Assembly (NCBI GenBank): GCA_964016885.1
Contig: OZ024750.1
Span: forward strand, 42,594,001 to 42,658,000
Direction of reading: 5' to 3'
Origin: Eledone cirrhosa
Lineage: Eukaryota
Length of the DNA: 64,000 bases
The position numbers and the translations under genes are program-made. Below, in pieces: positions 25,233 through 51,048 of the stretch. Under the pieces are notes generated by a model, which saw only the letters and a list, made by a program, of their open reading frames with translations, made no database searches and was not told the DNA's origin. Each line of letters starts with the position of its first letter. Position 1 is the first letter of the stretch.

Positions 25233-26951
25233 CTACCTGTTCGGCTCCTGAGGAGCAGGTTGCACAATATCCATGGGCGTATTGGAGGGGTTGTTTGGTG
25301 GGTTGTTGTTCTGTGGTGGAGTGGGGGTGTTTGGTGAGGTGTGGGTGGGGAAACGTTTCAAGAGGACGCGGTTATAGGGTCGAGTACATGTTTTCCCCAC
25401 GTCCTCAGGAAAGTTCTCTCTTAGTTTTGCATAGGTGTCCATTGGGAGTCTTATCATTTTTAAATGCGGTTTGTTGGCCGCGCTTGCAAAGAATTGCCCT
25501 TCAGTTTCCACCGAAGGGTCTTTGTGTATTGTTTTTACTAGTTCTTTGTTATTTGTGTTAATGTATGTATACTGTTTTATTTGTGTTGTGTTTGTTTGTT
25601 GTTCTTGTGTGTGCTTACGTTTTGTTGTATGTGTTATGTTTTGGGGTGGGGCGGATTTTGTTTGTTCTGTTTGTTTTGTTTTTGTTGGTGGTTGTGTGTT
25701 TGTTTCGTTTATGTTCGAGTGGTGCTTTCTTTTTTTCCTTTTTACAGGTTGGAAGGGTTCCCCCTCTTCGTCACTAGGTGCCGTTTCCGCTGGGTCCTCG
25801 TCCGTGCTGTCGGGTAGTGGTGTATTTTGGGGTTTTGTTGTATTTGTGTGTGTTTTGGGAGTTGTTTTGGGTGGGGCCGTGTCTTGTGTTATTTTTCCGT
25901 GTTGTTTTTGTTGTTGTTGTGGTGGTGGTGGTGGCGGTGGTGGTGTGTGGGGTGTAGGAAAAAGAGCCTGTTTTTTTGTCAATTGAGGACAAGCAGCCCT
26001 TAGATGACCCCTGCTTGAACAGTAGTAACATATGGGCCTCCTACCCTCGGCTGAAATGTATATAAATGTTTCTCCATCGAGGGACACCCTCTGTGGTATT
26101 CTAGCTATTCGTTCTGGTCTCATTTGGACCAGAACCTCCACGCTCAAACCGCCGAAAACGTCTGTGGTGACTTCTCCTACTGAGAGGATTCCGTCCTCGT
26201 CTTCTAAAAATCCTGTTAGTACCCAGGAAATGCATGCATTTGGCCGGATTCCAGAGACCCTTATTTTCTGCGTTCTTTTCCCTAAATATGTGGGGAAAAA
26301 TGTATGTAGCTTGGAAACAATTGACGCCACAGAGTATTTCCTGGCCGTCAATTGATCCTTCATTAGGACCGTTATATTCCCATAGAGTGGCCCTTTTTGT
26401 ATGAACGATATATCACTCCACACGTTTTTTAGGACCAGCTCAATCTCTTTTTGGGATAATTGAGCTGGTTTCCTTGTTATGTTGGAAATTGTTCTGAAAG
26501 ATATCGTTCTTAGCGTCGTGTCTCTTTTGATTTCTTGTGGGTAGGTGATTGTGAAGTCTCCTCCTTCTTTGAAAGTTACATACTGTTTCGCTTCCTTCAT
26601 CTTTTCTCTCAGAGTTGTAATGTCCAGTTGCTTGCAGGTTTGTGTTTTCCGGACCGCCTGTGCAAAGGAGGCACCAGTAGTGGGTTCGCTTTGTTTGGTG
26701 TTATCGTTATTTTTTCCTTGGTTGGTGTTGTGACTATTGCTGTTATTGTCGTTGTTGTTTTTGTCTGCGTTTATGTAACTTTCTGGGTTTTCACCCATTT
26801 TTACAAATTTTTCTTTTAATTCCGTGTTCCATGTTTCTTTTGCAGAAGTGAGGAGGGAAGACTTAGAGCCTTGTGCTTCTAGCTTCTCTGTATCACCTTT
26901 CTTAGGGGGCGTGGCTTTCACGTTAGGATGAGATGTGAAAATTCCGTCCAT
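25233..26951 (-). CDS. LINE ORF1 (gag-like, CCHC zinc knuckle); likely start MDGIF at 26951
   Basis: CYYCSSRGHLRAAC knuckle, SFAQAV and FQPVKRKKRK motifs typical of L1/Tx1 ORF1; the frame is open to 27044. Confidence 0.85.
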   Translation of the reverse strand: MDGIFTSHPNVKATPPKKGDTEKLEAQGSKSSLLTSAKETWNTELKEKFVKMGENPESYINADKNNNDNNSNSHNTNQGKNNDNTKQSEPTTGASFAQAVRKTQTCKQLDITTLREKMKEAKQYVTFKEGGDFTITYPQEIKRDTTLRTISFRTISNITRKPAQLSQKEIELVLKNVWSDISFIQKGPLYGNITVLMKDQLTARKYSVASIVSKLHTFFPTYLGKRTQKIRVSGIRPNACISWVLTGFLEDEDGILSVGEVTTDVFGGLSVEVLVQMRPERIARIPQRVSLDGETFIYISAEGRRPICYYCSSRGHLRAACPQLTKKQALFPTPHTPPPPPPPPQQQQKQHGKITQDTAPPKTTPKTHTNTTKPQNTPLPDSTDEDPAETAPSDEEGEPFQPVKRKKRKHHSNINETNTQPPTKTKQTEQTKSAPPQNITHTTKRKHTQEQQTNTTQIKQYTYINTNNKELVKTIHKDPSVETEGQFFASAANKPHLKMIRLPMDTYAKLRENFPEDVGKTCTRPYNRVLLKRFPTHTSPNTPTPPQNNNPPNNPSNTPMDIVQPAPQEPNR

Positions 26952-27159
26952 TTCTATTAGTTTGCCGTAATAAGTTTTTAACTGGAAAATTCGCCCCCAA
27001 AAGGGGCGAAAATAAATAAACTCAAAGTTTGACGACCAAGGCAAGGGGTTAACGTATATTACAGTATAAAAAAATTAATCAAAACTCACTTTTGAGTAAG
27101 TAAATCCGACTCGGTAGCCGAGCTTGTTCACACACGTCAACACACGTCTCTCGTATACG

Positions 27160-27360: not shown

Positions 27361-30300
27361 TCATCATCATCATCATCATCACCGTTTTACGTCCGTTCTT
27401 CCACGCTAGCATGGGTTAGACGGGTTGTCCTGTTGTGGGCAGTGTCTGGTCGGCTGACCATGCCTTGCTCATACAGGAACTGATCTGGCTTGATTTCTAC
27501 AGCTGGATGCCCTTCCTAACACCAACCTCATTTACAGTGAGTGCTGGGTGCTTTTTCGTGGCGCCTACACGTCCACTTTACAGTGTGGGCTGGGTGCTTT
27601 TTTGCCGTGGCACCTCCACGACCACCTTGCGGTGGGGGGGGGGGGGCATATTGTTTATATGCTTCAGCATGTACCCATGGGAGGTCGGGTACCCTGTATT
27701 ACTGCGTGACGCCAGAAGTCACGGTCGTGTGTCATTGACTTTGAGATGTGTAGTTGGGTAAGGTCGGCTTTTATCACCTCATCCCAAGTCATCTTGGGTC
27801 TCCCCACTCCGCGGTTTCCATCAACTTCTAGTGCTCTGCACCTTTTTATGCAGCTGTCATCCTTCATACGCATCACATGTCCATACCAGCGTAACCGCCT
27901 CTCCTGCACGCAGCATTTGATTCCTCTTATGCTCAGTCTCTCTCTCAATTCATTTATGCTTTGTCGTTCACGTATATTACTGTTACACATCCATCGGAGC
28001 ATGCAGGCTTCGTTTCTCTCTAATCTACGTAAGTCTTCCACCTTCAGCGCCCAGGTCTCACTACCATGCAACATCGCTGTTCGGATACACGCATCATACA
28101 GTCTGCCTTTCATTCTGAGGGAGAAGCCTTTTGCAGCTAGCAGTGGTAGTAGTTCCCTAAACTTCTTCCATCCCGTTCTTACCCTAGTTATTGTACTTTC
28201 TGAGCACCCACCTCCGTTGCTAATTCGGTCACCTAGGTAGCAGAAGCTGTCTACTGTTTCTACAGGGCCCTCCCAGAGATTGGTGGTACTTGTTTCCTGT
28301 GGCTGTTTGCTTGCTGTCCCAGCACAGCTGCTGCATGTGAATCCTACATTCTTAATTAAGCTTCCTGAGATCCCGCTACATCTCTTGTGTACCCATTGTT
28401 TGCATTTGGGGCAAAGAATGGAGTTCCTACCTACACCTTTCCTACATACTGAGCAAGGCCATTTCCCTGAGGGGATCTGGGTTCTGTTTTCTCGTCTACT
28501 TATAAGGACCTTAGTCTTTGTCATGTTGACTTTGAGGCCCTTTCTCTCTAGTCCCTGCTTCCAGGTTTGGAATTTATTCTCTAGTTCTACCATAGATTCA
28601 GCTATGAGTGCGAGGTCATCAGCATACAGGAGTTCCCATGGGCATCCGGTCTTAAACTCCTCCGTTATTGCCTGCAGGACTATGATGAACAGGAGAGGGC
28701 TAAGAACAGAGCCCTGGTGGACCCCAACCTGTACGCTAAATTCCTCGCTATACTCATTGCCAATCCTAACTTTGCTGACTGCTCCCCTATACATGGCTTG
28801 TACCGCTTTCACAAGCCATTCATCTACTCCTAGTTTTCTAAGAGCCCACCAGATTACTGCACGTGGAACTCTGTCAAAGGCTTTCTCAAGGTCGACAAAT
28901 GCCAAGTAGAGTGGCTTACTTTTAGCTAGGTACTTTTCCTGTAATTGCCTCACAAGGAAGAGCGCATCAGTGGTGCCTTTCCCTGGTACAAACCCAAATT
29001 GCATCTCGTCTATATTCACCCGGTCCCTAATCAGCTGTGCTATAACTCTTTCTGTTACTTTCATGACCTGGTCCATCAACTTTATACCTCTATAGTTTCC
29101 TCTATCTAGTGCATCGCCTTTACCTTTGTAGCAGTTGACAATGATGCTACTGCACCAATCTTTTGGTATGGCCCCCTCTAGTATTACCTGGTTAACGATA
29201 CGTGTGGTTATAGTGTGACCTACAGACCCAGATGCCTTCAGCATCTCGGCAGCTATACCCGATGGACCGGTTGCCTTCCCTATCTTCATATCTCTGATTG
29301 CCTTACTTACTACGCTGCCGCTGACTTGTACTGCTGGTCCCTCTATAGGGTCTACGTGGGGTAGGGTCTCTTCTTCCCATGCATTCTCCTCATTTAGTAA
29401 TCTATCATAATGACTCTTCCATGCATCTTTCTTCTCAGCACTTGTGAGGGCAAGCTCACCTTTATCATTCCGGATACACTTCTCTCCAATGACATCACAA
29501 CTATCTCTGACACACTGCCTCGCAATCTTGAATACCTCCTGTTTCTGGTCCTCACGTTGTAAAACATGCTTGAATTTTCTATCCTCTGCTTCCCTCCTAG
29601 CTAAGTATACTTGTCGCCTAGCTTCCCTCTTGGTCTCTATGTAATGTACCCTGCTCCCCCCGTTCTTCCATTCTTTCCATGCCTGTCTCTTGGCCTTGAC
29701 TGCTTCATCTACCTTATTGTTCCACCACCAAGTCACTCTCCTCCTGCTTGAGGTCTTACTCCAGCCACAAACCTCATCCGTCGCCTCTAGTAAGTTATTT
29801 TTTAGGAACTCCCAGTTCTCTTCTACGTTAAATGTCTCTATCTGTTCTTCTTTACTGTCGTAGGCGTTGAGTAAAATATCTTTAAATCTGTTACTGGTTG
29901 AGGGGACTTTCAGCTTCCAGATCTTTCTTCTCCAGGTTGGCCTCTGTTTCAGGGCTCGTCTAGTTCTGACCGTGAGGTCGCTGACAACTAAGCTATGTTG
30001 GGATGTACATTCCTCACTAGGGAAGGCTTTTGTGTTTACGACCGTCCATCTGTCACGTCCTCTGATGAGGATAAAATCTAACTGACTAGAGTGCTCCCCT
30101 GATCTATAGGTGATCAGGTGGTTGTCGGGTTTTTTAAAGTTTGTGTTACATATCGACATGTCATTGGCGTCGCAGAATTCTAGAAGTCTGAATCCTTCCT
30201 CATTCCTTGTGCCAACTCCATGGCCTCCATGTACTCTATTGAAGCCGTCGCAGTGTTTACCTACGTGTCCGTTAAAATCTCCTGCAATGATTAGGAAGTC

Positions 30301-30851
30301 CTTGTCGTCTGTTAGAGCAGTAGTGTGTATTAGGGACTCGTAAAACCTATCCTTAAGTTCGTCTGGCAGCCCCGATTGGGGTGCGTAAGCTGATATTATT
30401 GTGGTAATTGTCTTATTCAGGACTAGTCTGAGTTTAATGATTCTTGCATTTACCCTGTACACTGAGATTACTTTATCTACCCACTTGTCAGCTAATAGTA
30501 TACCTACACCACCCATCCCATCGTCATTTCCCACCCAGAAAAATTTGTAGCACTGGCTTTTTCCTACAAGGACTCTAGCAGACCCTCCTCTCCATCTAGT
30601 CTCTTGCACACAGCATACATCAACTTCCTTTCGCTCTAGCATTTCTACGATTTCTCCTGCTCTTCCTTTCATTGAGCCTACATTGATGATACCAACTCGG
30701 AGTTTTGGGCATTTGTCGACACTCGTAGGGGAGGGTCTCTGGGTTGGCGCTTCACGTGGGTGCTTGGTAGCTCGCAGATTCATATTTCATCTATTGATTC
30801 AGAGTTGCTCGTGTATTCCCAGCTCATCCATCCATAACGGTGGATGAGCTG
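27361..30851 (-). mobile_element. RTE-clade LINE, apparently intact, inserted in the 60-bp minisatellite
   Basis: Single ORF, ~300-nt 3' UTR ending (TGA)n; the satellite resumes in phase on both sides. Confidence 0.92.
27664..30783 (-). CDS. RTE ORF: APE, RT and PHD-like Cys/His finger (1039 aa)
   Basis: VQETRW, GDFNGH, NYRGIKL, FVDLEKAFDRV, GVHQGSVLSP, YADD; CSVC..CPKC..HKRC..CSSC; RRLRWYGHVMR. Confidence 0.95.
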   Translation of the reverse strand: MNLRATKHPREAPTQRPSPTSVDKCPKLRVGIINVGSMKGRAGEIVEMLERKEVDVCCVQETRWRGGSARVLVGKSQCYKFFWVGNDDGMGGVGILLADKWVDKVISVYRVNARIIKLRLVLNKTITTIISAYAPQSGLPDELKDRFYESLIHTTALTDDKDFLIIAGDFNGHVGKHCDGFNRVHGGHGVGTRNEEGFRLLEFCDANDMSICNTNFKKPDNHLITYRSGEHSSQLDFILIRGRDRWTVVNTKAFPSEECTSQHSLVVSDLTVRTRRALKQRPTWRRKIWKLKVPSTSNRFKDILLNAYDSKEEQIETFNVEENWEFLKNNLLEATDEVCGWSKTSSRRRVTWWWNNKVDEAVKAKRQAWKEWKNGGSRVHYIETKREARRQVYLARREAEDRKFKHVLQREDQKQEVFKIARQCVRDSCDVIGEKCIRNDKGELALTSAEKKDAWKSHYDRLLNEENAWEEETLPHVDPIEGPAVQVSGSVVSKAIRDMKIGKATGPSGIAAEMLKASGSVGHTITTRIVNQVILEGAIPKDWCSSIIVNCYKGKGDALDRGNYRGIKLMDQVMKVTERVIAQLIRDRVNIDEMQFGFVPGKGTTDALFLVRQLQEKYLAKSKPLYLAFVDLEKAFDRVPRAVIWWALRKLGVDEWLVKAVQAMYRGAVSKVRIGNEYSEEFSVQVGVHQGSVLSPLLFIIVLQAITEEFKTGCPWELLYADDLALIAESMVELENKFQTWKQGLERKGLKVNMTKTKVLISRRENRTQIPSGKWPCSVCRKGVGRNSILCPKCKQWVHKRCSGISGSLIKNVGFTCSSCAGTASKQPQETSTTNLWEGPVETVDSFCYLGDRISNGGGCSESTITRVRTGWKKFRELLPLLAAKGFSLRMKGRLYDACIRTAMLHGSETWALKVEDLRRLERNEACMLRWMCNSNIRERQSINELRERLSIRGIKCCVQERRLRWYGHVMRMKDDSCIKRCRALEVDGNRGVGRPKMTWDEVIKADLTQLHISKSMTHDRDFWRHAVIQGTRPPMGTC

Positions 30852-30859
30852 TATATATT

Positions 30860-32020
30860 AGTATATATAGAGTAATGTAAATGTTATGTGAGATATTATG
30901 TGAGGTAAAGCCTTTACTGTGAAAATACAATAGTATATATAGAGTAATGTAAATGGTATGTGAGATATTATGTGAGGTAAAGCCTTTACTGTGAAAATAC
31001 AATAGTATATATAGAGTAATGTAAATGTTATGTGAGATATTATGTGAGGTAAAGCCTTTACTGTGAAAATACAATAGTATATATAGAGTAATGTAAATGT
31101 TATGTGAGATATTATGTGAGGTAAAGCCTTTACTGTGAAAATACAATAGTATATATAGAGTAATGTAAATGTTATGTGAGATATTATGTGAGGTAAAGCC
31201 TTTACTGTGAAAATACAATAGTATATATAGAGTAATGTAAATGGTATGTGAGATATTATGTGAGGTAAAGCCTTTACTGTGAAAATACAATAGTATATAT
31301 AGAGTAATGTAAATGTTATGTGAGATATTATGTGAGGTAAAGCCTTTACTGTGAAAATACAATAGTATATATAGAGTAATGTAAATGTTATGTGAGATAT
31401 TATGTGAGGTAAAGCCTTTACTGTGAAAATACAATAGTATATATAGAGTAATGTAAATGGTATGTGAGATATTATGTGAGGTAAAGCCTTTACTGTGAAA
31501 ATACAATAGTATATATAGAGTAATGTAAATGGTATGTGAGATATTATGTGAGGTAAAGCCTTTACTGTGAAAATACAATAGTATATATAGAGTAATGTAA
31601 ATGTTATGTGAGATATTATGTGAGGTAAAGCCTTTACTGTGAAAATACAATAGTATATATAGAGTAATGTAAATGTTATGCGAGATATTATGTGAGGTAA
31701 AGCCTTTACTGTGAAAATACAATAGTATATATAGAGTAATGTAAATGTTATGTGAGATATTATGTGAGGTAAAGCCTTTACTGTGAAAATACAATAGTAT
31801 ATATAGAGTAATGTAAATGTTATGCGAGATATTATGTGAGGTAAAGCCTTTACTGTGAAAATACAATAGTATATATAGAGTAATGTAAATGTTATGTGAG
31901 ATATTATGTGAGGTAAAGCCTTTACTGTGAAAATACAATAGTATATATAGAGTAATGTAAATATTATGTGAAATATTATGTGAGGTAAACCCTTTACTGT
32001 GAAAATACAATAGTATATAT
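30860..32020. repeat. 60-bp MITE-derived minisatellite, about 19 units
   Basis: Same unit as 27160-27360; explains ORF 30799..32139. Confidence 0.95.
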
Positions 32021-32625
32021 AGGTTGATGGAAGCTACAGTGTAGGAAGACCTGGGATGACTTGGGATGAGGTGATCAAAGCTGACCTTGCACAATTGCCC
32101 CTCTCGAAGGTGGTGACACAAGATATAGGTCTCTGGCATTATTCAGTAATACAGAAGACCCACCTTCCCATGTGCATACATCTTGTATGCACTACCTTCT
32201 CCCTTTTCCTACCATTTTCCTCCATGTCCTAACGACCCTTCCTCCATCTATATATCACCCCCTCTTACACATCCCACATCCTAACACACCACCCTCTTTC
32301 ACACGACCCCAGATCTATCTCCCCAGTCCCAACACCACCAAACCCGAGGTCTCCAGCCCACACTATAATGTGGTTGTGATGGCGACGCAACCAAAAGCAC
32401 CCAGTCCTCACTGTAACGTAGTCATGTAGGTGACATAACAAAAAGCACCCAGTCCACACTGTAAATGTAGTTGGCTTTAGGAAGGGCATCCAGCCATAGA
32501 AACGAAGCCAGAATCAGTTCTGTATGAGCAAGACATGGTGTTCAGACCTGGCTTGTCTCACAACAGGACAACTCATCTAACCCATGCTAGTGTGGAAAAA
32601 TGGACGTTAAACGGTGAGGATGATG
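32021..32625 (+). mobile_element. Diverged RTE 3' fragment
   Basis: Translates VDG..VGRPGMTWDEVIKADL; tail with ggaagggcatccagcc and gatgatg. Confidence 0.75.
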
Positions 32626-34470: not shown

Positions 34471-34879
34471 ACTCCATCTCATTTTCTCATGCTGTTGGTG
34501 GGAGTGGGAGGATGGGGTAGGGGTAGTGGATTGGGGTGTATATTTTGTCAAGAGGTGCCTACTGACTATATATATGTAAGTATGTATACGTACATTCATC
34601 TATGTATTCAGATGTACAGTAGTATGTATATATATACATACATGTACACATATATATATATATATGTATGTATAGGTTTACCGAACATTTATTATAATGT
34701 TCGGTTTGTTTATAAACAAACAGCCCGAATTATGCCGTACAGTGTTTGACAACCAATCTTTGGTATATATATATATATATATATACCAAAGATTAATATG
34801 GTTCGTTGATTAAGCAACGAATACAATTTTACAATAGATTAGAAGCACTCAACAAAAGATTTTCCTGGAGTATTTAATG

Positions 34880-35209
34880 TTATTCAAAATATTAATAAAT
34901 GAAAAATATTCTCATAATCAAAATATATATTTTATACATATTTCAAAGGTACAATGGTGTTTAAGTACGTTTTCATCAGACAAAATATAAGATTTGATAT
35001 GCCACATACCGCTACGGTTTTGATTATTCAATTCCAATAGTGGCAATCCAATACTGGAATTGAATAATCAAAACCGTAGCGGTATGTCGCATATCAAATC
35101 TTATATTTTGTCTGATGAAAACGTACTTAAACACCATTGTACCTTTGAAATATGTATAATAAAATATATATTTTGATTATCAGAATATTTTTCATTTATT
35201 AATATTTTG

Positions 35210-35214
<5 letters not shown>
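34880..35214. repeat. Palindrome with ~158-bp arms next to (TA)n, carrying a hammerhead-like motif
   Basis: Arms ~34880-35037 and ~35055-35214; tatattttgt-CTGATGA-aaacgtac...gtaccttt-GAAA-tatgt at 35102-35168. Confidence 0.85.
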
Positions 35215-35251
<37 letters not shown>

Positions 35252-35367: not shown

Positions 35368-36015
35368 TCATCATCATCATCATCATTTTACGTCCGCTTT
35401 TCCCTGCTTGCAAGGGTGGGACGGGAACTGATTGTGGCTTGATTTCTACAGCTGGATGCCCTTCCTAACACCAACCTCATTTACAGTGAGTGCTGGGTGC
35501 TTTTTTGCCGTGGCACCTCCACGACCACTTTGCAGTGGAATGATAGGGATCCCAGTCCCTATCATCTCATTTCTACAGCTGAGTAAACTGGAGCAATGTG
35601 AAATAAAGTGTCTTGCTCAAGGAAAAAACACATCGCCCAGTCTGACCGTTTTACGTCCGTTCTTCCACGCTAGCATGGGTTAGACGGGTTGTCCTGTTGT
35701 GGGCAGTGTCTGGTCGGCTGACCATGCTTTGCTCATACAGGAACTGATCTGGCTTGATTTCTACAGCTGGATGCCCTTCCTAACGCCAACCTCATTTACA
35801 GTGAGTGCTGGGTGCTTTTTCGTGGCGCCTACACGTCCACTTTACAGTGGAATGATAGGGATCCCAGTCCCTATCATCTCATTTCTACAGCTGAGTAAAC
35901 TGGAGCAATGTGAAATAAAGTGTCTTGCTCAAGGAAAAAACACATCACCCAGTCTGAGAATTGAACTCACAACCTTTCGATTGCAAGACCAATGCTCTAA
36001 CCACTAAGCCATGTG

Positions 36016-36092
<77 letters not shown>

Positions 36093-36471
36093 TCATCATC
36101 ACCGTTTTACGTCCGTTCTTCCACGCTAGCATGGGTTAGACGGGTTGTCCTGTTGTGGGCAGTGTCTGGTCGGCTGACCATGCCTTGCTCATACAGGAAC
36201 TGATCTGGCTTGATTTCTACAGCTGGATGCCCTTCCTAACGCCAACCTCATTTACAGTGAGTGCTGGGTGCTTTTTCGTGGCGCCTACACGTCCACTTTA
36301 CAGTGGAATGATAGGGATCCCAGTCCCTATCATCTCATTTCTACAGCTGAGTAAACTGGAGCAATGTGAAATAAAGTGTCTTGCTCAAGGAAAAAACACA
36401 TCACCCAATCTGAGAATTGAACTCACAACCTTTCGATTGCAAGACCAATGCTCTAACCACTAAGCCATGTG

Positions 36472-36532: not shown

Positions 36533-37662
36533 TCATCATCACCGTTTTACGTCCGTTCTTCCACGCTAGCATGGGTTAGACGGGTTGTCCTGTTGTGGGC
36601 AGTGTCTGGTCGGCTGACCATGCCTTGCTCATACAGGAACTGATCTGGCTTGATTTCTACAGCTGGATGCCCTTCCTAACGCCAACCTCATTTACAGTGA
36701 GTGCTGGGTGCTTTTTCGTGGCGCCTACACGTCCACTTTACAGTGTGGGCTGGGTGCTTTTTTGCCGTGGCACCTCCACGACCACCTTGCGGTGGGGGGA
36801 GTGGGGGCATATTGTTTATATGCTTCAGCATGTACCCATGGGAGGTCGGGTACCCTGTATTACTGCGTGACGCCAGAAGTCACGGTCGTGTGTCATTGTC
36901 TTTGAGAGGTGTAGTTGGGTAAGGTCGGCTTTTATCACCTCATCCCAAGTCATCTTGGGTCTCCCCACTCCGCGGTTTCCATCAACTTCTAGTGCTCTGC
37001 ACCTTTTTATGCAGCTGTCATCCTTCATATGCATCACATGTCCATACCAGCGTAACCGCCTCTCCTGCACGCAGCATTTGATTCCTCTTATGCTCAGTCT
37101 CTCTCTCAATTCCTTTATGCTTTGTCGTTCACGTATATTACTGTTACACATCCATCGGAACATGCAGGCTTCGTTTCTCTCTAATCTACATAAGTCTTCC
37201 ACCTTCAGCGCCCAGGTCTCACTACCATGCAACATCGCTGTTCGGATACACGCATCATACAGTCTGCCTTTCATTCTGAGGGAGAAGCCTTTTGCAGCTA
37301 GCAGTGGTAGTAGTTCCCTAAACTTCTTCCATCCCGTTCTTACCCTAGTTATTGTACTTTCTGAGCACCCACCTCCGTTGCTAATTCGGTCACCTAGGTA
37401 GCAGAAGCTGTCTACTGTTTCTACAGGGCCCTCCCAGAGATTGGTGGTACTTGTTTCCTGTGGCTGTTTGCTTGCTGTTTCAGCACAGCTGCTGCATGTG
37501 AATCCTACATTCTTAATTAAGCTTCCTGAGATCCCGCTACATCTCTTGTGTACCCATTGTTTGCATTTGGGGCAGAGAATGGAGTTCCTACCTACACCTT
37601 TCCTACATACTGAGCAAGGCCATTTCCCTGAGGGGATCTGGGTTCTGTTTTCTCATCTACTT

Positions 37663-38562: not shown

Positions 38563-38604
<42 letters not shown>

Positions 38605-38658
38605 TAAACAAATAATGAATAAAACAATGAAACAGTTCCTTATATTAAACAAAAAAAG

Positions 38659-38813
38659 TTCATTATTTAACGATCGTTTCTAGGATATATATGTGTTAGA
38701 ATTGGCATGCATATTCAACAGATCTATGTACAAAATTATACAAAATTATACAAACTATCAAGATTAAATATACATACCAAACACACATATACGCCGTCTT
38801 CAGAAATAATGAA
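38659..38813 (-). ncRNA. Type I hammerhead ribozyme (inverted copy)
   Basis: Reverse complement of 47569-47723. Confidence 0.75.
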
Positions 38814-39435
38814 ATATATTTATTGATAATAATAACAATTCAAAATTTCAGGTCCGTTTGGGAACAAAATTGACCAATGAAAATACAAAAGGTTATATGC
38901 AGTTTGGCGTGTGTATATACATGTAACTACCCCGTACACATATTTATACAAAGATGTATGCTCAACATGCATACGCATGCCAAAAAGATGCATGCAAATA
39001 CAAAATTTCAAGGTTAATGTCTCTGTAAGTTTATAATGCACAGATAAGATGCGTATAGACACATAAATATGAAATAAGTGTATACACATATTCTCATACT
39101 CACACATATCCGTACACTCACACACACTCGCGCGTATATGCATAAACATACACATAATTACGAACATACATACACACAACACACCCCCACACACATATAT
39201 ATATGTGGATATAATATCATCATAAGCACATGGATATTAATTCACTCACATAAACACTGCCACACACATTTAGATCAAGATACAGAAATTAGGTGGGAGG
39301 GGGGGAGAGGTCAGTATTCAACGGTTTGGGCAGACTGCTTATTTATAGATGTATCTATAAACTAAGAAATAAAAAATAAAAATTAAAAAGGAAAGAAAAG
39401 AAAAAGAAAAAAGAAAAAAGAAATATATCAAGAAA

Positions 39436-39498
<63 letters not shown>

Positions 39499-39592
39499 CA
39501 CATACATATACACACATCTACACTTAGAACACACATACACACACATATATAAACATATACATATACAGACATACACACATATACACACATAC

Positions 39593-39649
<57 letters not shown>

Positions 39650-40166
39650 TACACATATAATCACACATACATATATAGACACACATATATATACACATAC
39701 ACGCACATATACATACACATACATACTTATATACATACAGATATACACATACATACCTATATATACACACAAATACATACAGACATACATACATACATAC
39801 ACACAAATACTTACGCATCCATATATCGGTATATACATACAAACACCACTACACTCTCACACAACTCAGACATACAAAGAAAAAGGTATATACCTATACA
39901 CATATACACATACAAATAGAGATACATATACATATATATATATATATACACATATATATATATATATATATACATACACATATACACACATATACATACA
40001 TACACATACATACATGTACTCACACATACATATACATACATATACACATACACACATACATATATAGTCATACACACACATACACCTACACGAACATACA
40101 CATACACATATATAAAGATATATATAGACACACACACATACACACACACACATATATATAAAATAA

Positions 40167-40237
<71 letters not shown>

Positions 40238-40798
40238 CACATATACATAGACATATATGTACATACATACACACACATACATACATATACACATATATAT
40301 ATATATATATATACACACATAGACACATACATACATACACACACAACATACATACACACACATATATACTCATACATAGACATAGATATATATTCATACA
40401 TACATACGCACTTACATATACTCATATATACAAATACATACGCATCCATATATGCGTATATACATACAAACACCACTACACTCTCACACAACTCAGACAT
40501 ACAAAGAAAAAGGTATATACATATACATATATACACACACTAATAGAGATACATATACACATATATATATATACACATATATACACATACATTTATATAT
40601 ATACACCCACACACACATACAACCATAAACACACATACAAACACACACATACACACATATATACATACATATATATACACACACACAAAAAAAACACACA
40701 TACACATATATATTTTTTTACCCATATATATACATATATATAGACATATACACACCCTCACATATACACACATACACATAAGTTATATTATAATAATA

Positions 40799-40847
<49 letters not shown>

Positions 40848-40880
40848 CGAATATAGACATATATACACACATAGATATAC

Positions 40881-40916
<36 letters not shown>

Positions 40917-41084
40917 TCACATATATATGTGCGCACACGTACATATATACACATACACACATATACACATAAACATATACATGTGCATACATGTACATAC
41001 ACACATATAGCCACATAGATACGAAGATAGACATATATATAGAGAGATATACATATATATACACATATATATATACACATACAT

Positions 41085-41125
<41 letters not shown>

Positions 41126-41925
41126 TACACGCCCACACACATATACACATATACACATATATATATATATACATATACACACATATATACACATGCATAT
41201 ATACACATATATATATATACATACACACACATATATATACACACAATCTTACATTCTTATTTGCATGCGCATATATGTATTTTTATATTCAGATATAAAT
41301 ACCCAAACATATATACACCTACCTACATATATATTCATACATACACGCTTACAAACACAGATGATAATAGTATGGGGGAAAGGGGGGGGGGGGGTTGGAG
41401 AAGGGGATTATAGTAAATATATGTTTCAAGAAACATAGAATATTATCTGTATCTGGATCCCAATATATGTTTTTTTACATAGTTTCAGTGTTAGGAAATA
41501 CAAGAAATAAGGCAAAATTATGCATTTCAAAATAAGTATACCATTAATTATATGTTAACTAAACTAAAGATAGTTAACATATTGATTTCTAAGGTGTAAA
41601 TTAGTTAGGTTTATAATATTTGAAGCAGAATTTTGAAGTTAAATAGTAGTAGAGTATTAATTATAGTATAACTAAATTAAAGTTATTAACATTATGGTAT
41701 CAATATTAGGAAATGAATTTAGTAATAGGGAAAAAACAAATAAAGTATTACATCGGTAGTAGAATATAAATTATAGGTTAACTAAATTAAAAATTATATA
41801 TTAATTTCCATAGTATATGTTAATTAGGTATATAATAAATAAAACAGATATTGTATTTTATCAATAGCAGAATATAATTATATGCAAATAGAAATCAAAA
41901 TTAATACACATACATATACATATAC

Positions 41926-41972
<47 letters not shown>

Positions 41973-42219
41973 TACATACACATACATATACATACATACA
42001 TATACATATTTTTTCAAAAATTGCAAAGAATATATTAACTAGGTATACATCCAAAACACATCCCATTCTATGATTACATGACACTCTGCAATCCGTCTGT
42101 ATAAGGATACTAATTTTAAGCCAATTAAATTAAATTTTTAGGTTGACTAAATTTAAAACCAAATTATAAATATATTTCTAAAATGTATATTAATTAGGTC
42201 TATAATACTAAAAATTATT

Positions 42220-43956
42220 GGTTTAAAAATATTAGATGTAAATCTTCTGCTTCATTTCTACAATTTGATATAGATAATTACTATTCTTCTATATCACCTA
42301 TACTCCTGAACAAAGCATTGATATTTGCTAAAAATAGATCTAACTTAACTTTGGATGACATTAATATTATTACACATGCTAGACTAACACTTATTGAATT
42401 TCAGAATGAATACTGGACCAGAAACACATATAGTAATCTATTTGATATTACTATGGGTTCAAGCGATTCCGCCCAAATTACTGATCTTGTGGGCCTCTTT
42501 CTCCTTTTCAACATAAATGCCTCCTTTCCCCACCTCAAAGGTGGTTTATATCGTGATGACTGTCTTCTTCTTTCTAACAACCTTAGCCTTTCAGAAATTG
42601 AAAAAAACAAAAAACATATTAGAACTTTCCTTAAAGACTATTATAATCTTCATATTACTTTTGAAAAAACAAGTAAGGTAGTAAATTTCCTAGATATAAC
42701 TTTAGATTTAGCTACGGGTATCTACCAACCTTACCATAAACCAAACCAAAACTTACATTACATACACTCACAATCTAATCACCCTAAATCTATCCTTAAA
42801 AACCTTGCATATAATATATCACTTAGAATTTCTAACCTTTCTTCTAACCAAGATGTATTTGATAAAAATGCGACCTTCTATAACGAAGCTCTAGATAGAA
42901 GTGGCCACAAAAATAGATTAGAATATATACCTTCTACTAAAAATACTAAAAGCATACAACCTAATATTACCAACAAACACCAAATGAAAAGTACACACCT
43001 AAATGCCACCCACACTATACCCCAAAATACCAAATCTTCTAATATAAAATATAGTAACTCTCAAAAAACTACTCATCATACAACTCTAATAAATATTAAT
43101 AATAAAACTCCTAATAAAAAAGATAAAACACCTAAATCTACAAATATAACTAAAAATGGTTGTGGTGAGATCATTAACATTAATCCTCCTAGTAAACATC
43201 ACGATACAACCTATAAAAATAATAAAAATAATAAACAACATAGAAACCGTAATAGACGCGTTACTTGGTATAATGCTCCATTTAATTTACAAATTAAGGA
43301 TAATATTGCTAAAAAATTTTTTTATATCCTAGAGAAAAACTTCCCGCCAAACCACAAATACCATCAAATCTTAAATAGGTCTACAGTTAAATTCTCATAC
43401 TCAACAACAAATAACATAAAACAAAATATAAGTGCCTATAATGCATATAAATGTAAGAAAACCATAAGTATACCACCAGTACATCAAATTAACCATAATA
43501 TCTCCTCAAATACAGAATTAACGAAAGGTTGTAACTGTAGAAACAAAGCAAACTGCCCATTAAAAGGGAATTGTCTTGTTAACAACATAGTCTATAAATG
43601 TAATGTTAAAACTAAAGATTCTATTTGCTCATATATAGGAGCTACCTCTAACAATTTTAAGACAAGGTTTAATACCCACAAGCATAGTTTTAAAAATGCC
43701 GCACTGGCTAATACAACATCTCTAGCAGAAAAAAATCAATAGTTATAAAAATAAGAATATAGAATATGATTTGACCTGGAGTGTGCTCAAAAGAGCCACC
43801 CCTTATCAAAATAATAGAAATGAATGTAGATTATGTTCCCAAGAACTATTTGAAATAATGAAATCTAAGGATATCCTATTAAATAAACGACAGGAATTAA
43901 TTATATCGTGTAATCATAAACTAAAAAAAACATTTAAATATTATAAACCTAATTAA
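42220..43956 (+). pseudogene. 5'-truncated Penelope-like RT plus GIY-YIG endonuclease, one frameshift near 43735
   Basis: FLQFDIDNYYSSI, MGSSDSA, LYRDD, NFLDITL, SNHP; linker CNCRNKANCPLKGNC; IVY..YIG, FKTRFNTH; CRLC..E, LLN, CNH. Confidence 0.9.
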
Positions 43957-44448
43957 TAACATTATTTTAGAAATTAATTTAATTTAAATGTTAGTTAACC
44001 TATAAATTTAATTTAATTAAAATTCTACTACAGATGAGAATATAAAATATTGTGTAATCATAAATTGTGAAAAACCTTTAAATATTACTAATATATACTT
44101 AGTAATTTAATTTATAGATTAATTTTAATTTATTTAAACCTTTTATTAAAATTCCTTTACAGATAAAATATAACAAAATATCGTGTATCCAATGACAGAG
44201 AAATAATTTTTAGTATTATAGACCTAATTAATATACATTTTAGAAATATATTTATAATTTGGTTTTAAATTTAGTCAACCTAAAAATTTAATTTAATTGG
44301 CTTAAAATTAGTATCCTTATACAGACGGATTGCAGAGTGTCATGTAATCATAGAATGGGATGTGTTTTGGATGTATACCTAGTTAATATATTCTTTGCAA
44401 TTTTTGAAAAAATATGTATATGTATGTATGTATATGTATGTGTATGTA

Positions 44449-44503
<55 letters not shown>

Positions 44504-45302
44504 GTATATGTATATGTATGTGTATTAATTTTGATTTCTATTTGCATATAATTATATTCTGCTATTGATAAAATACAATATCTGTTTTATTTATTATATA
44601 CCTAATTAACATATACTATGGAAATTAATATATAATTTTTAATTTAGTTAACCTATAATTTATATTCTACTACCGATGTAATACTTTATTTGTTTTTTCC
44701 CTATTACTAAATTCATTTCCTAATATTGATACCATAATGTTAATAACTTTAATTTAGTTATACTATAATTAATACTCTACTACTATTTAACTTCAAAATT
44801 CTGCTTCAAATATTATAAACCTAACTAATTTACACCTTAGAAATCAATATGTTAACTATCTTTAGTTTAGTTAACATATAATTAATGGTATACTTATTTT
44901 GAAATGCATAATTTTGCCTTATTTCTTGTATTTCCTAACACTGAAACTATGTAAAAAAACATATATTGGGATCCAGATACAGATAATATTCTATGTTTCT
45001 TGAAACATATATTTACTATAATCCCCTTCTCCAACCCCCCCCCCCCTTTCCCCCATACTATTATCATCTGTGTTTGTAAGCGTGTATGTATGAATATATA
45101 TGTAGGTAGGTGTATATATGTTTGGGTATTTATATCTGAATATAAAAATACATATATGCGCATGCAAATAAGAATGTAAGATTGTGTGTATATATATGTG
45201 TGTGTATGTATATATATATATGTGTATATATGCATGTGTATATATGTGTGTATATGTATATATATATATATGTGTATATGTGTATATGTGTGTGGGCGTG
45301 TA

Positions 45303-45333
<31 letters not shown>

Positions 45334-45509
45334 GTGTGTATGTATGTGTATATATATATATGTGTATATATATGTATGTCTCTCTATATATATGTCTATC
45401 TTCGTATCTATGTGGCTATATGTGTGTATGTACATGTATGCACATGTATATGTTTATGTGTATATGTGTGTATGTGTATATATGTACGTGTGCGCACATA
45501 TATATGTGA

Positions 45510-45547
<38 letters not shown>

Positions 45548-45578
45548 GTATATCTATGTGTATATATGTCTATATTCG

Positions 45579-45623
<45 letters not shown>

Positions 45624-46184
45624 TATTATTATAATATAACTTATGTGTATGTGTGTATATGTGAGGGTGTGTATATGTCTATATATATGTATATATATGG
45701 GTAAAAAAATATATATGTGTATGTGTGTTTTTTTTGTGTGTGTGTATATATATGTATGTATATATGTGTGTATGTGTGTGTTTGTATGTGTGTTTATGGT
45801 TGTATGTGTGTGTGGGTGTATATATATAAATGTATGTGTATATATGTGTATATATATATATGTGTATATGTATCTCTATTAGTGTGTGTATATATGTATA
45901 TGTATATACCTTTTTCTTTGTATGTCTGAGTTGTGTGAGAGTGTAGTGGTGTTTGTATGTATATACGCATATATGGATGCGTATGTATTTGTATATATGA
46001 GTATATGTAAGTGCGTATGTATGTATGAATATATATCTATGTCTATGTATGAGTATATATGTGTGTGTATGTATGTTGTGTGTGTATGTATGTATGTGTC
46101 TATGTGTGTATATATATATATATATATGTGTGTATATGTATGTATGTGTGTGTATGTATGTACATATATGTCTATGTATATGTG

Positions 46185-46215
<31 letters not shown>

Positions 46216-46734
46216 CTTTATTTTATATATATGTGTGTGTGTGTATGTGTGTGTGTCTATATATATCTTTATATATGTGTATGTGTATGTTCGTGTAGGT
46301 GTATGTGTGTGTATGACTATATATGTATGTGTGTATGTGTATATGTATGTATATGTATGTGTGAGTACATGTATGTATGTGTATGTATGTATATGTGTGT
46401 ATATGTGTATGTATATATATATATATATATATGTGTATATATATATATATATGTATATGTATCTCTATTTGTATGTGTATATGTGTATAGGTATATACCT
46501 TTTTCTTTGTATGTCTGAGTTGTGTGAGAGTGTAGTGGTGTTTGTATGTATATACCGATATATGGATGCGTAAGTATTTGTGTGTATGTATGTATGTATG
46601 TCTGTATGTATTTGTGTGTATATATAGGTATGTATGTGTATATCTGTATGTATATAAGTATGTATGTGTATGTATATGTGCGTGTATGTGTATATATATG
46701 TGTGTCTATATATGTATGTGTGATTATATGTGTA

Positions 46735-46789
<55 letters not shown>

Positions 46790-46883
46790 GTATGTGTGTA
46801 TATGTGTGTATGTCTGTATATGTATATGTTTATATATGTGTGTGTATGTGTGTTCTAAGTGTAGATGTGTGTATATGTATGTG

Positions 46884-46946
<63 letters not shown>

Positions 46947-47568
46947 TTTCTTGATATATTTCTTTTTTCTTTTTTCTTTTTCTTTTCTTTCCTTTTTAAT
47001 TTTTATTTTTTATTTCTTAGTTTATAGATACATCTATAAATAAGCAGTCTGCCCAAACCGTTGAATACTGACCTCTCCCCCCCTCCCACCTAATTTCTGT
47101 ATCTTGATCTAAATGTGTGTGGCAGTGTTTATGTGAGTGAATTAATATCCATGTGCTTATGATGATATTATATCCACATATATATATGTGTGTGGGGGTG
47201 TGTTGTGTGTATGTATGTTCGTAATTATGTGTATGTTTATGCATATACGCGCGCGTGTGTGTGAGTGTACGGATATGTGTGTGTATGAGAATATGTGTAT
47301 ACACTTATTTCATATTTATGTGTCTATACGCATCTTATCTGTGCATTATAAACTTACAGAGACATTAACCTTGAAATTTTGTATTTGCATGCATCTTTTT
47401 GGCATGCGTATGCATGTTGAGCATACATCTTTGTATAAATATGTGTACGGGGTAGTTACATGTATATACACACGCCAAACTGCATATAACCTTTTGTATT
47501 TTCATTGGTCAATTTTGTTCCCAAACGGACCTGAAATTTTGAATTGTTGTTATTATCAATAAATATAT

Positions 47569-47723
47569 TTCATTATTTCTGAAGACGGCGTATATGTGTG
47601 TTTGGTATGTATATTTAATCTTGATAGTTTGTATAATTTTGTATAATTTTGTACATAGATCTGTTGAATATGCATGCCAATTCTAACACATATATATCCT
47701 AGAAACGATCGTTAAATAATGAA
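47569..47723 (+). ncRNA. Type I hammerhead ribozyme with extended stem II
   Basis: ttcattattt-CTGAAGA-(~115-nt stem-loop)-GAAA-cgatcg-TT-aaataatgaa; perfect 10-bp stem I, palindromic stem III. Confidence 0.8.
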
Positions 47724-47917
47724 CTTTTTTTGTTTAATATAAGGAACTGTTTCATTGTTTTATTCATTATTTGTTTAATATTTTATCTTGACTCTGTATA
47801 CCGTTTATCTTTCACCGAAAGTGATTTTTCATTGCATCTCTTCTTTCCATGATATCCGGATTACATTGAGTTCTTCATACGGATTGGACACTACCGTAAA
47901 CTCTTGGTAGATTTATC

Positions 47918-47984
<67 letters not shown>

Positions 47985-48274
47985 TCATCATCGTTTAACG
48001 TCCATCTTCCACGCTAGCATGGGTTAGACAGGTTTGTTCCATTTGATGCAGGTATGGTCAGGAGACCCGGCATACAAGTCAACATTTGGAGCCTAAAAAT
48101 ATAAAATGTGAACCTTTACCACTGAGGGGTAAACAGTGAAACTGCCTGCCTAACACTCGTTGTACACCACTTACTATAACTCTAGCAGCCCACCACAATT
48201 ATTTCCTACTGAACCTCATATTTGTTAAGTCGATTTAACGTAGAGATTATAATATCCATGACTTGCTGTAGCTC

Positions 48275-50100
48275 ATAGGGTAGGTTACCATAGGGTAGCT
48301 TACCATAGGTTAGGTTACCATAGGGTAGGTTAGCACAGGGTAGGTTACCATAGGTTAGGTTACTGTAGGTTAGGTTACCATAGGGTAGGTTAGCACAGGG
48401 TAGGTTACCATAGGGTAGGTTACCATAGGTTAGGTTACCATAGGGTAGATTAGCACAGGGTAGGTTACCATAGGTTAGGTTACTGTAGGTTAGGTTACCA
48501 TAGGGTAGGTTATCGTAGGGTAGGTTAGCATAGGGTAGGTTACCATAGGTTAGGTTACTGTAGGATAGGTTACCATAGGGTAGGTTACCGTAGGGTAGGT
48601 TAGCATAGGTTAAGTTACCATAGGGCAGGTTAGTATAGGTTAGGTTACCATGGGGTAGGTTACCATATGGTAGGTTACCATAGGATAGGTTACCATAGGT
48701 TAAGTTACCGTAGAGTAGGTAACCATAGGGTAGGTTACTGTAGGGTAGGTTAACATAGGTTAGGTTACCATAGATTAGGTTACCATAGGGTAGGTTAGCA
48801 CAGGGTAGGTTACCATAGGTTAGGTTACTGTAGGTTAGGTTACCATAGGGTAGGTTACCGTAGGGTAGGTTAGCATAGGGTAGGTTAAAATAGGTTAGGT
48901 TACTGTAGGATAGGTTACCATAGGGTAGGTTACCGTAGGGTAGGTTAGCATAGGTTAAGTTACCATAGGGCAGGTTAGTATAGGTTAGGTTACCATGGGG
49001 TAGGTTACCATAGGATAGGTTACCATAGGTTAAGTTACCGTCGAGTAGGTAACCATAGGGTAGGTTACTGTAGGGTAGGTTAACATAGGTTAGGTTACCA
49101 TAGATTAGGTTACCATAGGGTAGGTTACCATAGGTTAGGTTACCATAGGGTAGGTTACCATAGGGTAGGTTAGCATAGGTTATGTTACCATAGGGAAGGT
49201 TAGCATAGGTTAGGTTACCATAGGTTAGGTTACCATAGGGTAGGTTACCATAGGTTAGGTTACCATAGGGTAGGTTACCATAGGGTAGGTTAGAATAGGT
49301 TAGGTTACCATAGGGTAGGTTAGCATAGGGTAGGTTACTATAGGGTATGTTAGCATAGGTTAGGTTACCATAGGGTAGGTTACCATAGGGTAGGTTAGCA
49401 TAGGTTAGGTTACCATAGGGTAGGTTACCATAGGGTAGGTTAGCATAGGTTAGGTTACCATAGGGAACGTTAGCATAGGTTAGGTTACCATAGGGTAGGT
49501 TACTATAGGGTATGTTAGCATAGGTTAGGTTACCATAGGGTAGGTTACTATAGGGTATGTTAGCATAGGTTAGGTTACCATAGGGTAGGTTACCATAGGG
49601 TAGGTTACTATAGGGTTTGTTAGCATAGGTTAGGTTACCATAGGGTAGGTTACCATAGGGTAGGTTAGCATAGGTTAGGTTACCATAGGGTAGGTTACCA
49701 TAGGGTAGGTTACCATAGGGTAGGTTAGCATAGGTTAGGTTACCATAGGGTAGGTTACTATAGGGTATGTTAGCATAGGTTAGGTTACCATAGGGTAGGT
49801 TACTATAGGGTATGTTAGCATAGGTTAGGTTACCATAGGGTAGGTTACCATAGGGTAGGTTAGCATAGGTTAGGTTACCATAGGGTAGGTTACCATAGGG
49901 TAGGTTACCATAGGGTAGGTTAGCATAGGTTAGGTTACCATAGGGTAGGTTACCATAGGGTAGGTTAGCATAGGGTAGGTTAGCATAGGTTAGGTTACCA
50001 TAGGGTAGGTTACCATAGGGTAGGTTACTATAGGGTTTGTTAGCATAGGTTAGGTTACCATAGGGTAGGTTACCATAGGGTAGGTTACTATATGTTTGGT
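48275..50100. repeat. 15-bp minisatellite (taggttaccataggg and variants), ~1.8 kb
   Basis: Built from the pentamers TAGGT, TACCA/TAGCA and TAGGG. Confidence 0.95.
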
Positions 50101-50609: not shown

Positions 50610-51048
50610 TGCACACATATATATATGTATGTATGGATTCACCGAACATTTATTATAATGCTCAGTGTGTTTGTAAACAAACATCCCGAATTAAGCCGTA
50701 CAGTGTCTAGCAACCATTGTTGGAAAGTATATACTTCAAGGAAAGTATATACTTTCAGACGTTCAACCATTTGGCAGGAAGGTATACGATGCTGACGATA
50801 GTTAATAAGCTTGAAACTAGTACATCGTTCCTGTGTCAGTGTTGAACAAAAAGGTGACGTGGTTGCCTAAACACTGTACGGCGTAATTCGGACTGTTTGT
50901 TTGTTTACAAACAAACAAACCGAGCATTATAGTAAGTGTTCGGTAAACCGATACGTGCATATATATATGTGTGCATGTATGTATATATATATACATACTA
51001 CTGTGCGTCTGTATACATATATGTATGTATACATACATACATACTTAC
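50516..51048. mobile_element. Foldback/MITE-like element with diverged ~190-bp inverted arms
   Basis: 50516-50716 versus 50860-51048; one arm recurs at ~34575-34755. Confidence 0.6.

Follow-up and report, generated by a model that had tools for sequence, protein, structure and literature searches.

A 64,000-nt window of the Eledone cirrhosa genome (contig OZ024750.1, 42,594,001-42,658,000, forward strand; all coordinates below are positions within this window) contains a 5.7-kb insertion, measured from its truncation point to the end of its tail, that has the motifs of a Penelope-like element (PLE) and is flanked on its 5' side by an inverted copy of its own 3' region. Self-BLAST and pairwise alignment pair the two arms of this inverted repeat with 5 substitutions in 3,573 aligned columns (99.86% identity), three of them outside the low-complexity block of the arms, and with 9 gaps, each lying within a (TA), (TG) or C run and the biggest measuring 38 bp. 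The initial annotation of this DNA had described near-identical reverse-complement arms, differing by a few substitutions and by repeat lengths, which enclose a 2-kb fragment coding for a reverse transcriptase (RT) and a GIY-YIG endonuclease (EN); the alignment bears this out, with an arm divergence of 0.14% and 1,982 bp of unique DNA between the arms, bearing an open reading frame (ORF). The left arm abuts a (TA)18 run, and the right arm is continued by 134 nt before a (TA)31 run is reached. At the head-to-head junction (42219) the overlap is certain for one base only, the T of an invariant Trp codon. The features of the insertion are collected in the table, together with two further elements of the window discussed below.

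Table. Features of the insertion and of related elements in the window.
Feature	Position	Strand	Evidence
(TA)18 run, left end, left half of presumed target	38563..38598	.	tandem-repeat and run scan
Inverted arm, 3,624 bp: tail-less second copy of 3' region, truncated 5'	38596..42219	-	alignment
Mirror copy of hammerhead-like motif (core 38803)	38659..38813	-	pattern scan
5'-truncated ORF, RT/thumb/linker/EN	42219..43956	+	alignment with relatives
Proximal 3' spacer, multi-copy	43957..45188	+	Tandem Repeats Finder (TRF), contigs of four runs, self-comparison
Direct arm, 3,585 bp, mate of inverted arm	44202..47786	+	alignment
Low-complexity block, 1,783 bp	45189..46971	+	TRF, composition
Type I hammerhead-like motif, predicted cut after 47713	47569..47723	+	pattern scan, shuffles, fold
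134-nt tail, one end only; opens with degenerate form of relatives' post-hammerhead motif	47787..47920	+	alignment
(TA)31 run, right end, right half of presumed target	47921..47982	.	tandem-repeat and run scan
PLE-2, another Hydra-type family	51157..53854	-	ORF, pattern scan, self-comparison
ORF-less hairpin mini-element, two hammerhead-bearing ends between (TA)n runs	34787..35217	.	pattern scan
RCTC-N4-30-GAGY-N-CT in related loci L006, L007, L013, L015, L018, L025, L032, L040, L042, L053, L060, L068, L071, L072 and in the window	53783-53810, 34840-34872		

The ORF fragment opens at the invariant Trp codon, which precedes RT motif 3/A, and ends with a stop codon at 43954-43956. It is frameshifted at an A-run (43729-43735, near 43730), where a length difference is also listed in contigs of three of the four public sequencing runs described below. 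A protein search with the fragment returned 145 homologs at E<=0.001 (best 4e-113), and among the best 30 of these 145 relatives the sole entry labelled with a species was a protein of Argonauta hians with 36% identity. Alignment with relatives gives the order RT, thumb, Asn/Lys/Thr-rich low-complexity linker, CxCx5C and GIY-YIG-type EN, the RT motifs and the VY...YIG core aligning with full-length proteins. Since Pfam gave nothing above threshold on the ORF fragments, naming the element Penelope-like rests on the motifs described in PMC8557442 (statements drawn from sources cited here by PMC number refer to their accessible portions). The Hydra clade is characterized there by a CxCx5C linker, a VY-YIG core devoid of CxxC, and CxxC and CxH about a conserved E and N. 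In the fragment, CxCx5C reads CNCRNKANC and stands ahead of the EN core; inspection of the alignment revealed no CxxC between VY and YIG, where two Cys lie nine apart, the second being unconserved; and CxxC (CRLC) and CxH (CNH) surround the conserved E and N, both in the post-frameshift frame. A PLE-type RT joined to a GIY-YIG EN, 5' truncation, an adjacent inverted truncated copy and a one-ended tail, all found here, identify EN-bearing Penelope-like elements, as the initial annotation had proposed, and the (TA)18 and (TA)31 runs at the two ends agree with the (TA)n insertion of the Hydra clade. The usual Hydra size of less than 3 kb, a descriptive criterion, is exceeded by the 5.7 kb measured here. 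Judged by these motifs, the element appears to be Penelope-like with Hydra-clade features. The Naiad clade, with its N-terminal EN and without a canonical hammerhead, was considered and ruled out, the EN being C-terminal here.

The N-terminal region, where the Hydra clade has RWK and DKT motifs, is missing from this truncated copy; among the relatives of at least 600 aa it carries [AS]DKT in 54 of 68 and a strict RxRW[KR] in 21 of 68. In a quick tree of 48 rows, built without the published Hydra references, the ORF groups with P0001, P0003 and P0014 (Argonauta hians) at a Shimodaira-Hasegawa-like approximate likelihood ratio (SH-aLRT) of 84, which is weak. The thumb-linker interval (42960-43250) contains some 100 aa of in-frame, Asn/Lys/Thr-rich insert, which is shorter in P0001-P0003 and P0014 and is reminiscent of the Asn-rich inserts known from Penelope ORFs of Adineta.

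A pattern scan of the window located hammerhead-like motifs with a 10-bp stem I in both arms, with cores at 47579 (+) and, in mirror position, at 38803 (-). The former lies 3,623 nt past the ORF stop, in agreement with the distance of about 3.6 kb first put forward. The cores of the motif are complete, its stem II is 116 nt long and irregular at the base, its stem III is palindromic, a trait shared with dimer-type PLE hammerheads (PMC4209133), and none of 1,000 dinucleotide shuffles of 43956-47920 yielded such a motif. The exact 22-nt hammerhead pattern was found in the window in the two arms only and was absent from viral and prokaryote collections. The motif fails a stricter rule that is passed by 28 related loci and by PLE-2, the second Hydra-type element of the window, and Rfam at its gathering threshold returned no hammerhead in the window, its only matches being three tRNA-like sequences. 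We refer to it as a predicted hammerhead-like motif.

The inverted repeat is a known head-to-head insertion form of Penelope-like elements and is unremarkable except for its size. PLEs usually have a tail at one end only and, at their 5' end, an inverted copy that is itself truncated 5' (PMC8557442, PMC3846280, PMC8969392), and the Hydra family Penelope-13_HM carries such a copy of 966 nt (PMC8557442 supplement). The family-specific 3.6-kb pseudo-long terminal repeat (pseudo-LTR) of the initial annotation thus gives way to a described PLE feature. No direct upstream copy, that is, no direct pseudo-LTR from a partial tandem, was detected at the locus by self-BLAST or pairwise alignment, which is expected because the copy is truncated, and inverted-only copies have been described (PMC3846280). 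The inverted arm stops exactly in (TA)n, 73 nt past the predicted cut site and without the tail. Its length likely reflects where copying stopped and not a family trait: PLE-2 has an inverted arm of 186 bp (183 bp had been reported) yet a low-complexity 3' region of 1,257 nt, so that a short arm need not go with a short 3' region, the two lengths being distinct matters. Inverted repeats of 183-544 bp with 66-90% identity were found in 3 of the 27 related loci of at least 3 kb. By its arm divergence the insertion is likely recent. Given that only 732 of 2,732 contigs of run X1 are at least 99% alike, the 99.86% identity of the arms points to one template.

The region separating the ORF from the hammerhead-like motif had been described as filled with microsatellites. 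It is indeed rich in repeats, but TRF arrays occupy 2,009 of the 3,585 bp of the right arm (56%), about half. The proximal spacer (19-24% GC) contains a short (TA)/(TATG) array at 44412-44525 and two decayed self-duplications, one of the last 80 nt of the ORF at 44018-44105 (65 of 79 positions identical) and one of the post-stop sequence at 44229-44350 (86 of 102), each of which outscores all of its 200 shuffles. In the low-complexity block that follows, purines and pyrimidines alternate at 87% of steps and TG outnumbers CA by 325 to 9 on the ORF strand; seven of the eight perfect (TA)>=10 runs of the right arm sit there. The block also holds, in both arms, an internal duplication (45714-46248 and 46296-46813) of about 88% identity (437 matches, 59 mismatches) with a 65-bp exact core whose copies are 589 bp apart. 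No complex 16-mer of the 3' region recurs elsewhere in the window. Because both arms contain it, the long 3' region belonged to the copied template, as had been claimed for a kilobase-long 3' region. The self-derived duplicates of the proximal spacer point to growth from within: tandem duplication and slippage may have enlarged the spacer within the lineage, with the microsatellites as passengers.

Contigs of four public runs from two studies (X1 and X6 from organism A, X4 from organism B, X5 from organism C) were aligned to 42220-45180, an interval that takes in the initial 1.2 kb of the 3.6-kb spacer; X1 possibly derives from the same source as the window itself. For X1, X4 and X6 every one of the 30 bins had depth, for X5 29 of them; over the spacer (44002-45180) the corresponding figures are 12 of 12 and 11 of 12, the zero-depth bin of X5 (44497-44595) lying beside the short array. 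Variant letters in the spacer are shared between runs, that at 44738 occurring in 11, 2, 6 and 1 contigs. Individual records cross the end of the gene: X6 record 27 (43878-44136) spans the stop with 14 differences, X1 record 7 aligns to 43857-43973 and then to 44217-44361 with 249 letters versus 243 in the window, and X4 record 14 extends to 45180. No RNA data set was listed with matches to 42220-45180, a negative that says nothing about expression. The proximal 1.2-kb spacer is multi-copy, common to divergent copies, and reaches beyond the hammerhead distance of the relatives. Over 42220-45180, the comparison with other copies that the initial annotation had called for shows the initial 1.2 kb of spacer in numerous divergent variants from four runs with three organism labels. 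We consider it likely that the long stretch between gene and hammerhead-like motif travels with the element.

To place this distance among relatives, we used 77 related metagenome loci, 61 with a located stop and 28 of these 61 with a hammerhead under the strict rule. Stop and hammerhead are 3,623 nt apart in the present element and 1,257 nt apart in PLE-2, as compared to 48-305 nt (median 104.5) in the 28 loci. Hand counts in four published Hydra consensi give about 125-180 nt (PMC8557442 supplement), against a 3.62-kb, half low-complexity spacer and a 116-nt stem II here. The element resembles published members of the clade such as Hydra-1_Obim in having an RT followed by a GIY-YIG EN, CxCx5C, CxxC and CxH, and a (TA)n target, with a predicted hammerhead-like motif near the 3' end where the clade has a canonical type I hammerhead, and departs from them in size (entries of 1,080-3,045 bp versus a truncated 5.7 kb) and from PLEs at large in its tail (30-40 bp versus 134 nt; PMC8557442). 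The novelty lies in the swelling of the ORF-to-hammerhead spacer to about 3.6 kb, the insertion form being already known. Within the literature searched, to which Repbase, Dfam, most subscription papers and bioRxiv supplements did not belong, we met no account of a Hydra-clade family whose microsatellite spacer runs to several kilobases. The annotation of Octopus vulgaris counts 329 recent Penelope insertions totalling 1,795,539 bp (PMC13282606), and their mean of 5.5 kb suggests that the corresponding library may already include long consensi.

Taken together, we favour, with a probability of roughly 0.7, a 5'-truncated Penelope-like element with Hydra motifs lying between (TA)n runs, accompanied by an inverted copy of its 3' end, likely the product of one recent insertion, and belonging to a family whose spacer has swollen to about 3.6 kb. 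Several points weigh against this reading. No strand-changing joint at the inversion is listed in the contigs of the four runs, where a joint from a single locus may lie under the 5% listing limit. No hammerhead was found under the strict rule in 33 of the 61 related loci, seven of which have at least 950 nt downstream; the motif of the present element itself escapes that rule, short contigs bias the distances downwards, and near-copies occur among the 28 loci. The unconstrained fold of the motif (-47.8 kcal/mol) pairs part of the core, and the hammerhead fold (-44.6) is 3.2 kcal/mol less stable. Summed depth is not higher over the spacer than over the ORF (X1 medians 26,025 versus 38,753, and lower still in X4-X6), whereas a 5'-truncating family should be deeper towards 3'; it is to be noted that such depth is no copy number, according to the tool's own warning, and that the spacer is very AT-rich. 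Joints at 43958-44636 (X6, 2 contigs) and 43922-44635 (X1) may represent relatives with shorter spacers, or misplacement on the internal duplication. Finally, contigs were aligned up to 45180; for the microsatellite block, both presence throughout the family and linkage to the hammerhead are argued from this one locus.

This last point leaves room for the alternative that survives best, namely that the donor of this copy alone had acquired the distal 2.4 kb, as host DNA or as a nested insert of low complexity, the family sharing the proximal spacer and the hammerhead end. A precedent exists in Pen1_Av of Adineta vaga (Arkhipova et al. 2013, PMC3846280), where a long spacer of 0.9-1.5 kb likewise separates the ORF from the 3' terminal repeat; these spacers vary by copy, are read as captured host DNA and accompany mostly direct repeats. 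The present spacer is longer and microsatellite-rich, and its first 1.2 kb is, unlike those of Pen1_Av, common to divergent copies and partly self-derived. Strand-biased TG/TA tracts comparable to the block do occur elsewhere in the window without an adjacent hammerhead (for instance at 19751-20250), but the block of either arm carries the 88% internal duplication, and PLE-2, from another family, also possesses a long low-complexity 3' region. We regard capture of the distal part as unlikely.

Long inverted repeats are able to convert each other, and the certain overlap of a single base at the junction would also suit an arm made or homogenised after insertion at the DNA level, by fold-back repair or gene conversion, in which case the near-identity of the arms would neither date the event nor show that the RNA carried the region twice. 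Repair is, however, unlikely to choose the point at which the tail-less arm ends, exactly in (TA)n 73 nt past the predicted cut, and in each of the window's three elements the short end sits 3-5 nt ahead of the tail's first RCTC, which makes such an origin very improbable. An assembly or long-read fold-back artefact deserves equally little credit: no read-level joint across the junction is listed in the contigs of the four runs and all arm gaps fall in simple repeats, where consensus errors are common, yet 1,982 bp of unique ORF separate the arms, three of the 5 substitutions between them lie outside the low-complexity block, their end point is typical of the clade, and two more elements of the window are built alike.

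The preferred reading, a single insertion from one template, can be phrased after Poseidon of Anolis carolinensis, which cuts and extends both strands of AT-rich DNA and in which two internal RT starts behind the hammerhead define an optional tail (Frangieh et al. 2024, PMC11167929), a behaviour that fits the two unlike ends observed here. By analogy with this in vitro system, the protein would nick both strands of (TA)n, reverse transcription would begin at 47786 and at 47920, both behind the hammerhead and separated by the tail, and the two cDNAs of 5.7 kb and 3.6 kb would be joined head to head at 42219. Poseidon belongs to another clade and its ORF begins inside the hammerhead. Self-priming on an antisense template may be another route to the inverted copy (PMC3846280).

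The arms contain 17 of the 64 perfect (TA)>=10 runs of the window, or 2.36 per kb as compared to 0.82 outside the element (about threefold). The insertion therefore added potential targets, and the claim that it duplicates and deposits (TA)n is upheld. Each full copy would add about 8 perfect runs, a small number against this rich background, and because the background already offers 0.82 runs per kb, the data suggest that targets are not limiting. Neither a second hammerhead nor a recognisable ORF piece was found inside the arms by the ORF list and the pattern scan, which gives no sign of nested use of the carried runs. A feedback between insertion and (TA)n targets is possible and probably small. 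That retrotransposons give rise to microsatellites is established for L1 and Alu (Grandi and An 2013, PMC3812793), whose repeats arise with or after integration, whereas ready-made target-type (TA)n resides inside the present element.

In its broadest form, which we hold to be doubtful, the proposal would be that at least two Hydra-clade families of the host lineage carry kilobase TG/TA spacers in every copy, often twice, seed their own (TA)n targets, form a measurable share of the strand-biased low-complexity DNA of the genome and build nested insertion chains. If the microsatellite spacer is family-wide, three consequences would follow. Repeat libraries that expect Hydra elements under 3 kb would class it as simple repeat and miss its origin; as the element brings its target along, counts of nested insertions could test for a feedback between retrotransposition and microsatellite content; and young, near-perfect inverted repeats of 3.6 kb would be potential sources of long double-stranded RNA and of rearrangements.

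A further regularity concerns the sequence behind the hammerhead. The motif RCTC-N4-30-GAGY-N-CT lies 49-70 nt past the hammerhead GAAAC in 15 of the 22 related loci with at least 100 nt available (0.08 expected from shuffles), the other 6 of the 28 hammerhead loci being too short for the count. It is intact in PLE-2 and in the mini-element and degenerate in the main element. We regard it as a candidate inner RT-start or protein-binding signal. Together with the two insertion ends it yields concrete predictions of RT starts; no biochemistry was found for the Hydra clade. The motif is unmentioned in the Hydra description within the accessible portions of PMC8557442, and it is visible by eye in the printed Hydra-2_Ajap and Hydra-2_Amil consensi of the same source. 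Three related loci (L019, L035, L036) enter (TA)n at about the point of the motif.

The inverted arm of PLE-2 (53594-53779, paired with 51157-51342) bears a tail of about 75 nt; the ORF stop lies at 52510 and hammerhead cores at 51253 (-) and 53683 (+). Its 3' region is T-rich, its stem II measures 38 nt, and its linker resembles by eye that of Hydra-1_Obim. A weak likeness between the 3' ends of PLE-2 and the main element (score 203 versus a shuffle maximum of 194) was judged compositional and discarded. The hairpin of the mini-element (34877-35217) is 94% self-complementary, with a tail on one side and hammerheads at 35112 (+) and 34979 (-); in the surrounding sequence (34754-35250) the 8-9 bases next to the left (TA)n run reappear, reverse-complemented, at the outer end of the tail. 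Related short palindrome-rich sequences flank the mini-element (34700-34760) and the 3' side of PLE-2 (50680-50930), and a weaker hammerhead-like pattern occurs at 50792.

Elsewhere in the window, long minus-strand open frames at 21774-27074 form a two-ORF non-LTR element with an apurinic/apyrimidinic endonuclease (APE) and an RT, which we take to be L1/Tx1-like. Another APE-RT frame of 1,040 aa, presumably RTE-like, lies on the minus strand in 27664-30786, with a truncated second copy at 36825-37652. The three tRNA-like matches (18103-18160, 35950-36013, 36406-36469) are near-identical and just over the Rfam threshold, two of them standing beside (TA)n runs; they are probably heads of short interspersed nuclear elements (SINEs). 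Kilobase tandem arrays occupy 9470-13335, 14319-15706, 30800-32140, 48274-50100 and 55854-58250, and include a trinucleotide-like array, a short-period minisatellite, one array recurring at 59193-59654, and 15-bp-based and 70-bp arrays.

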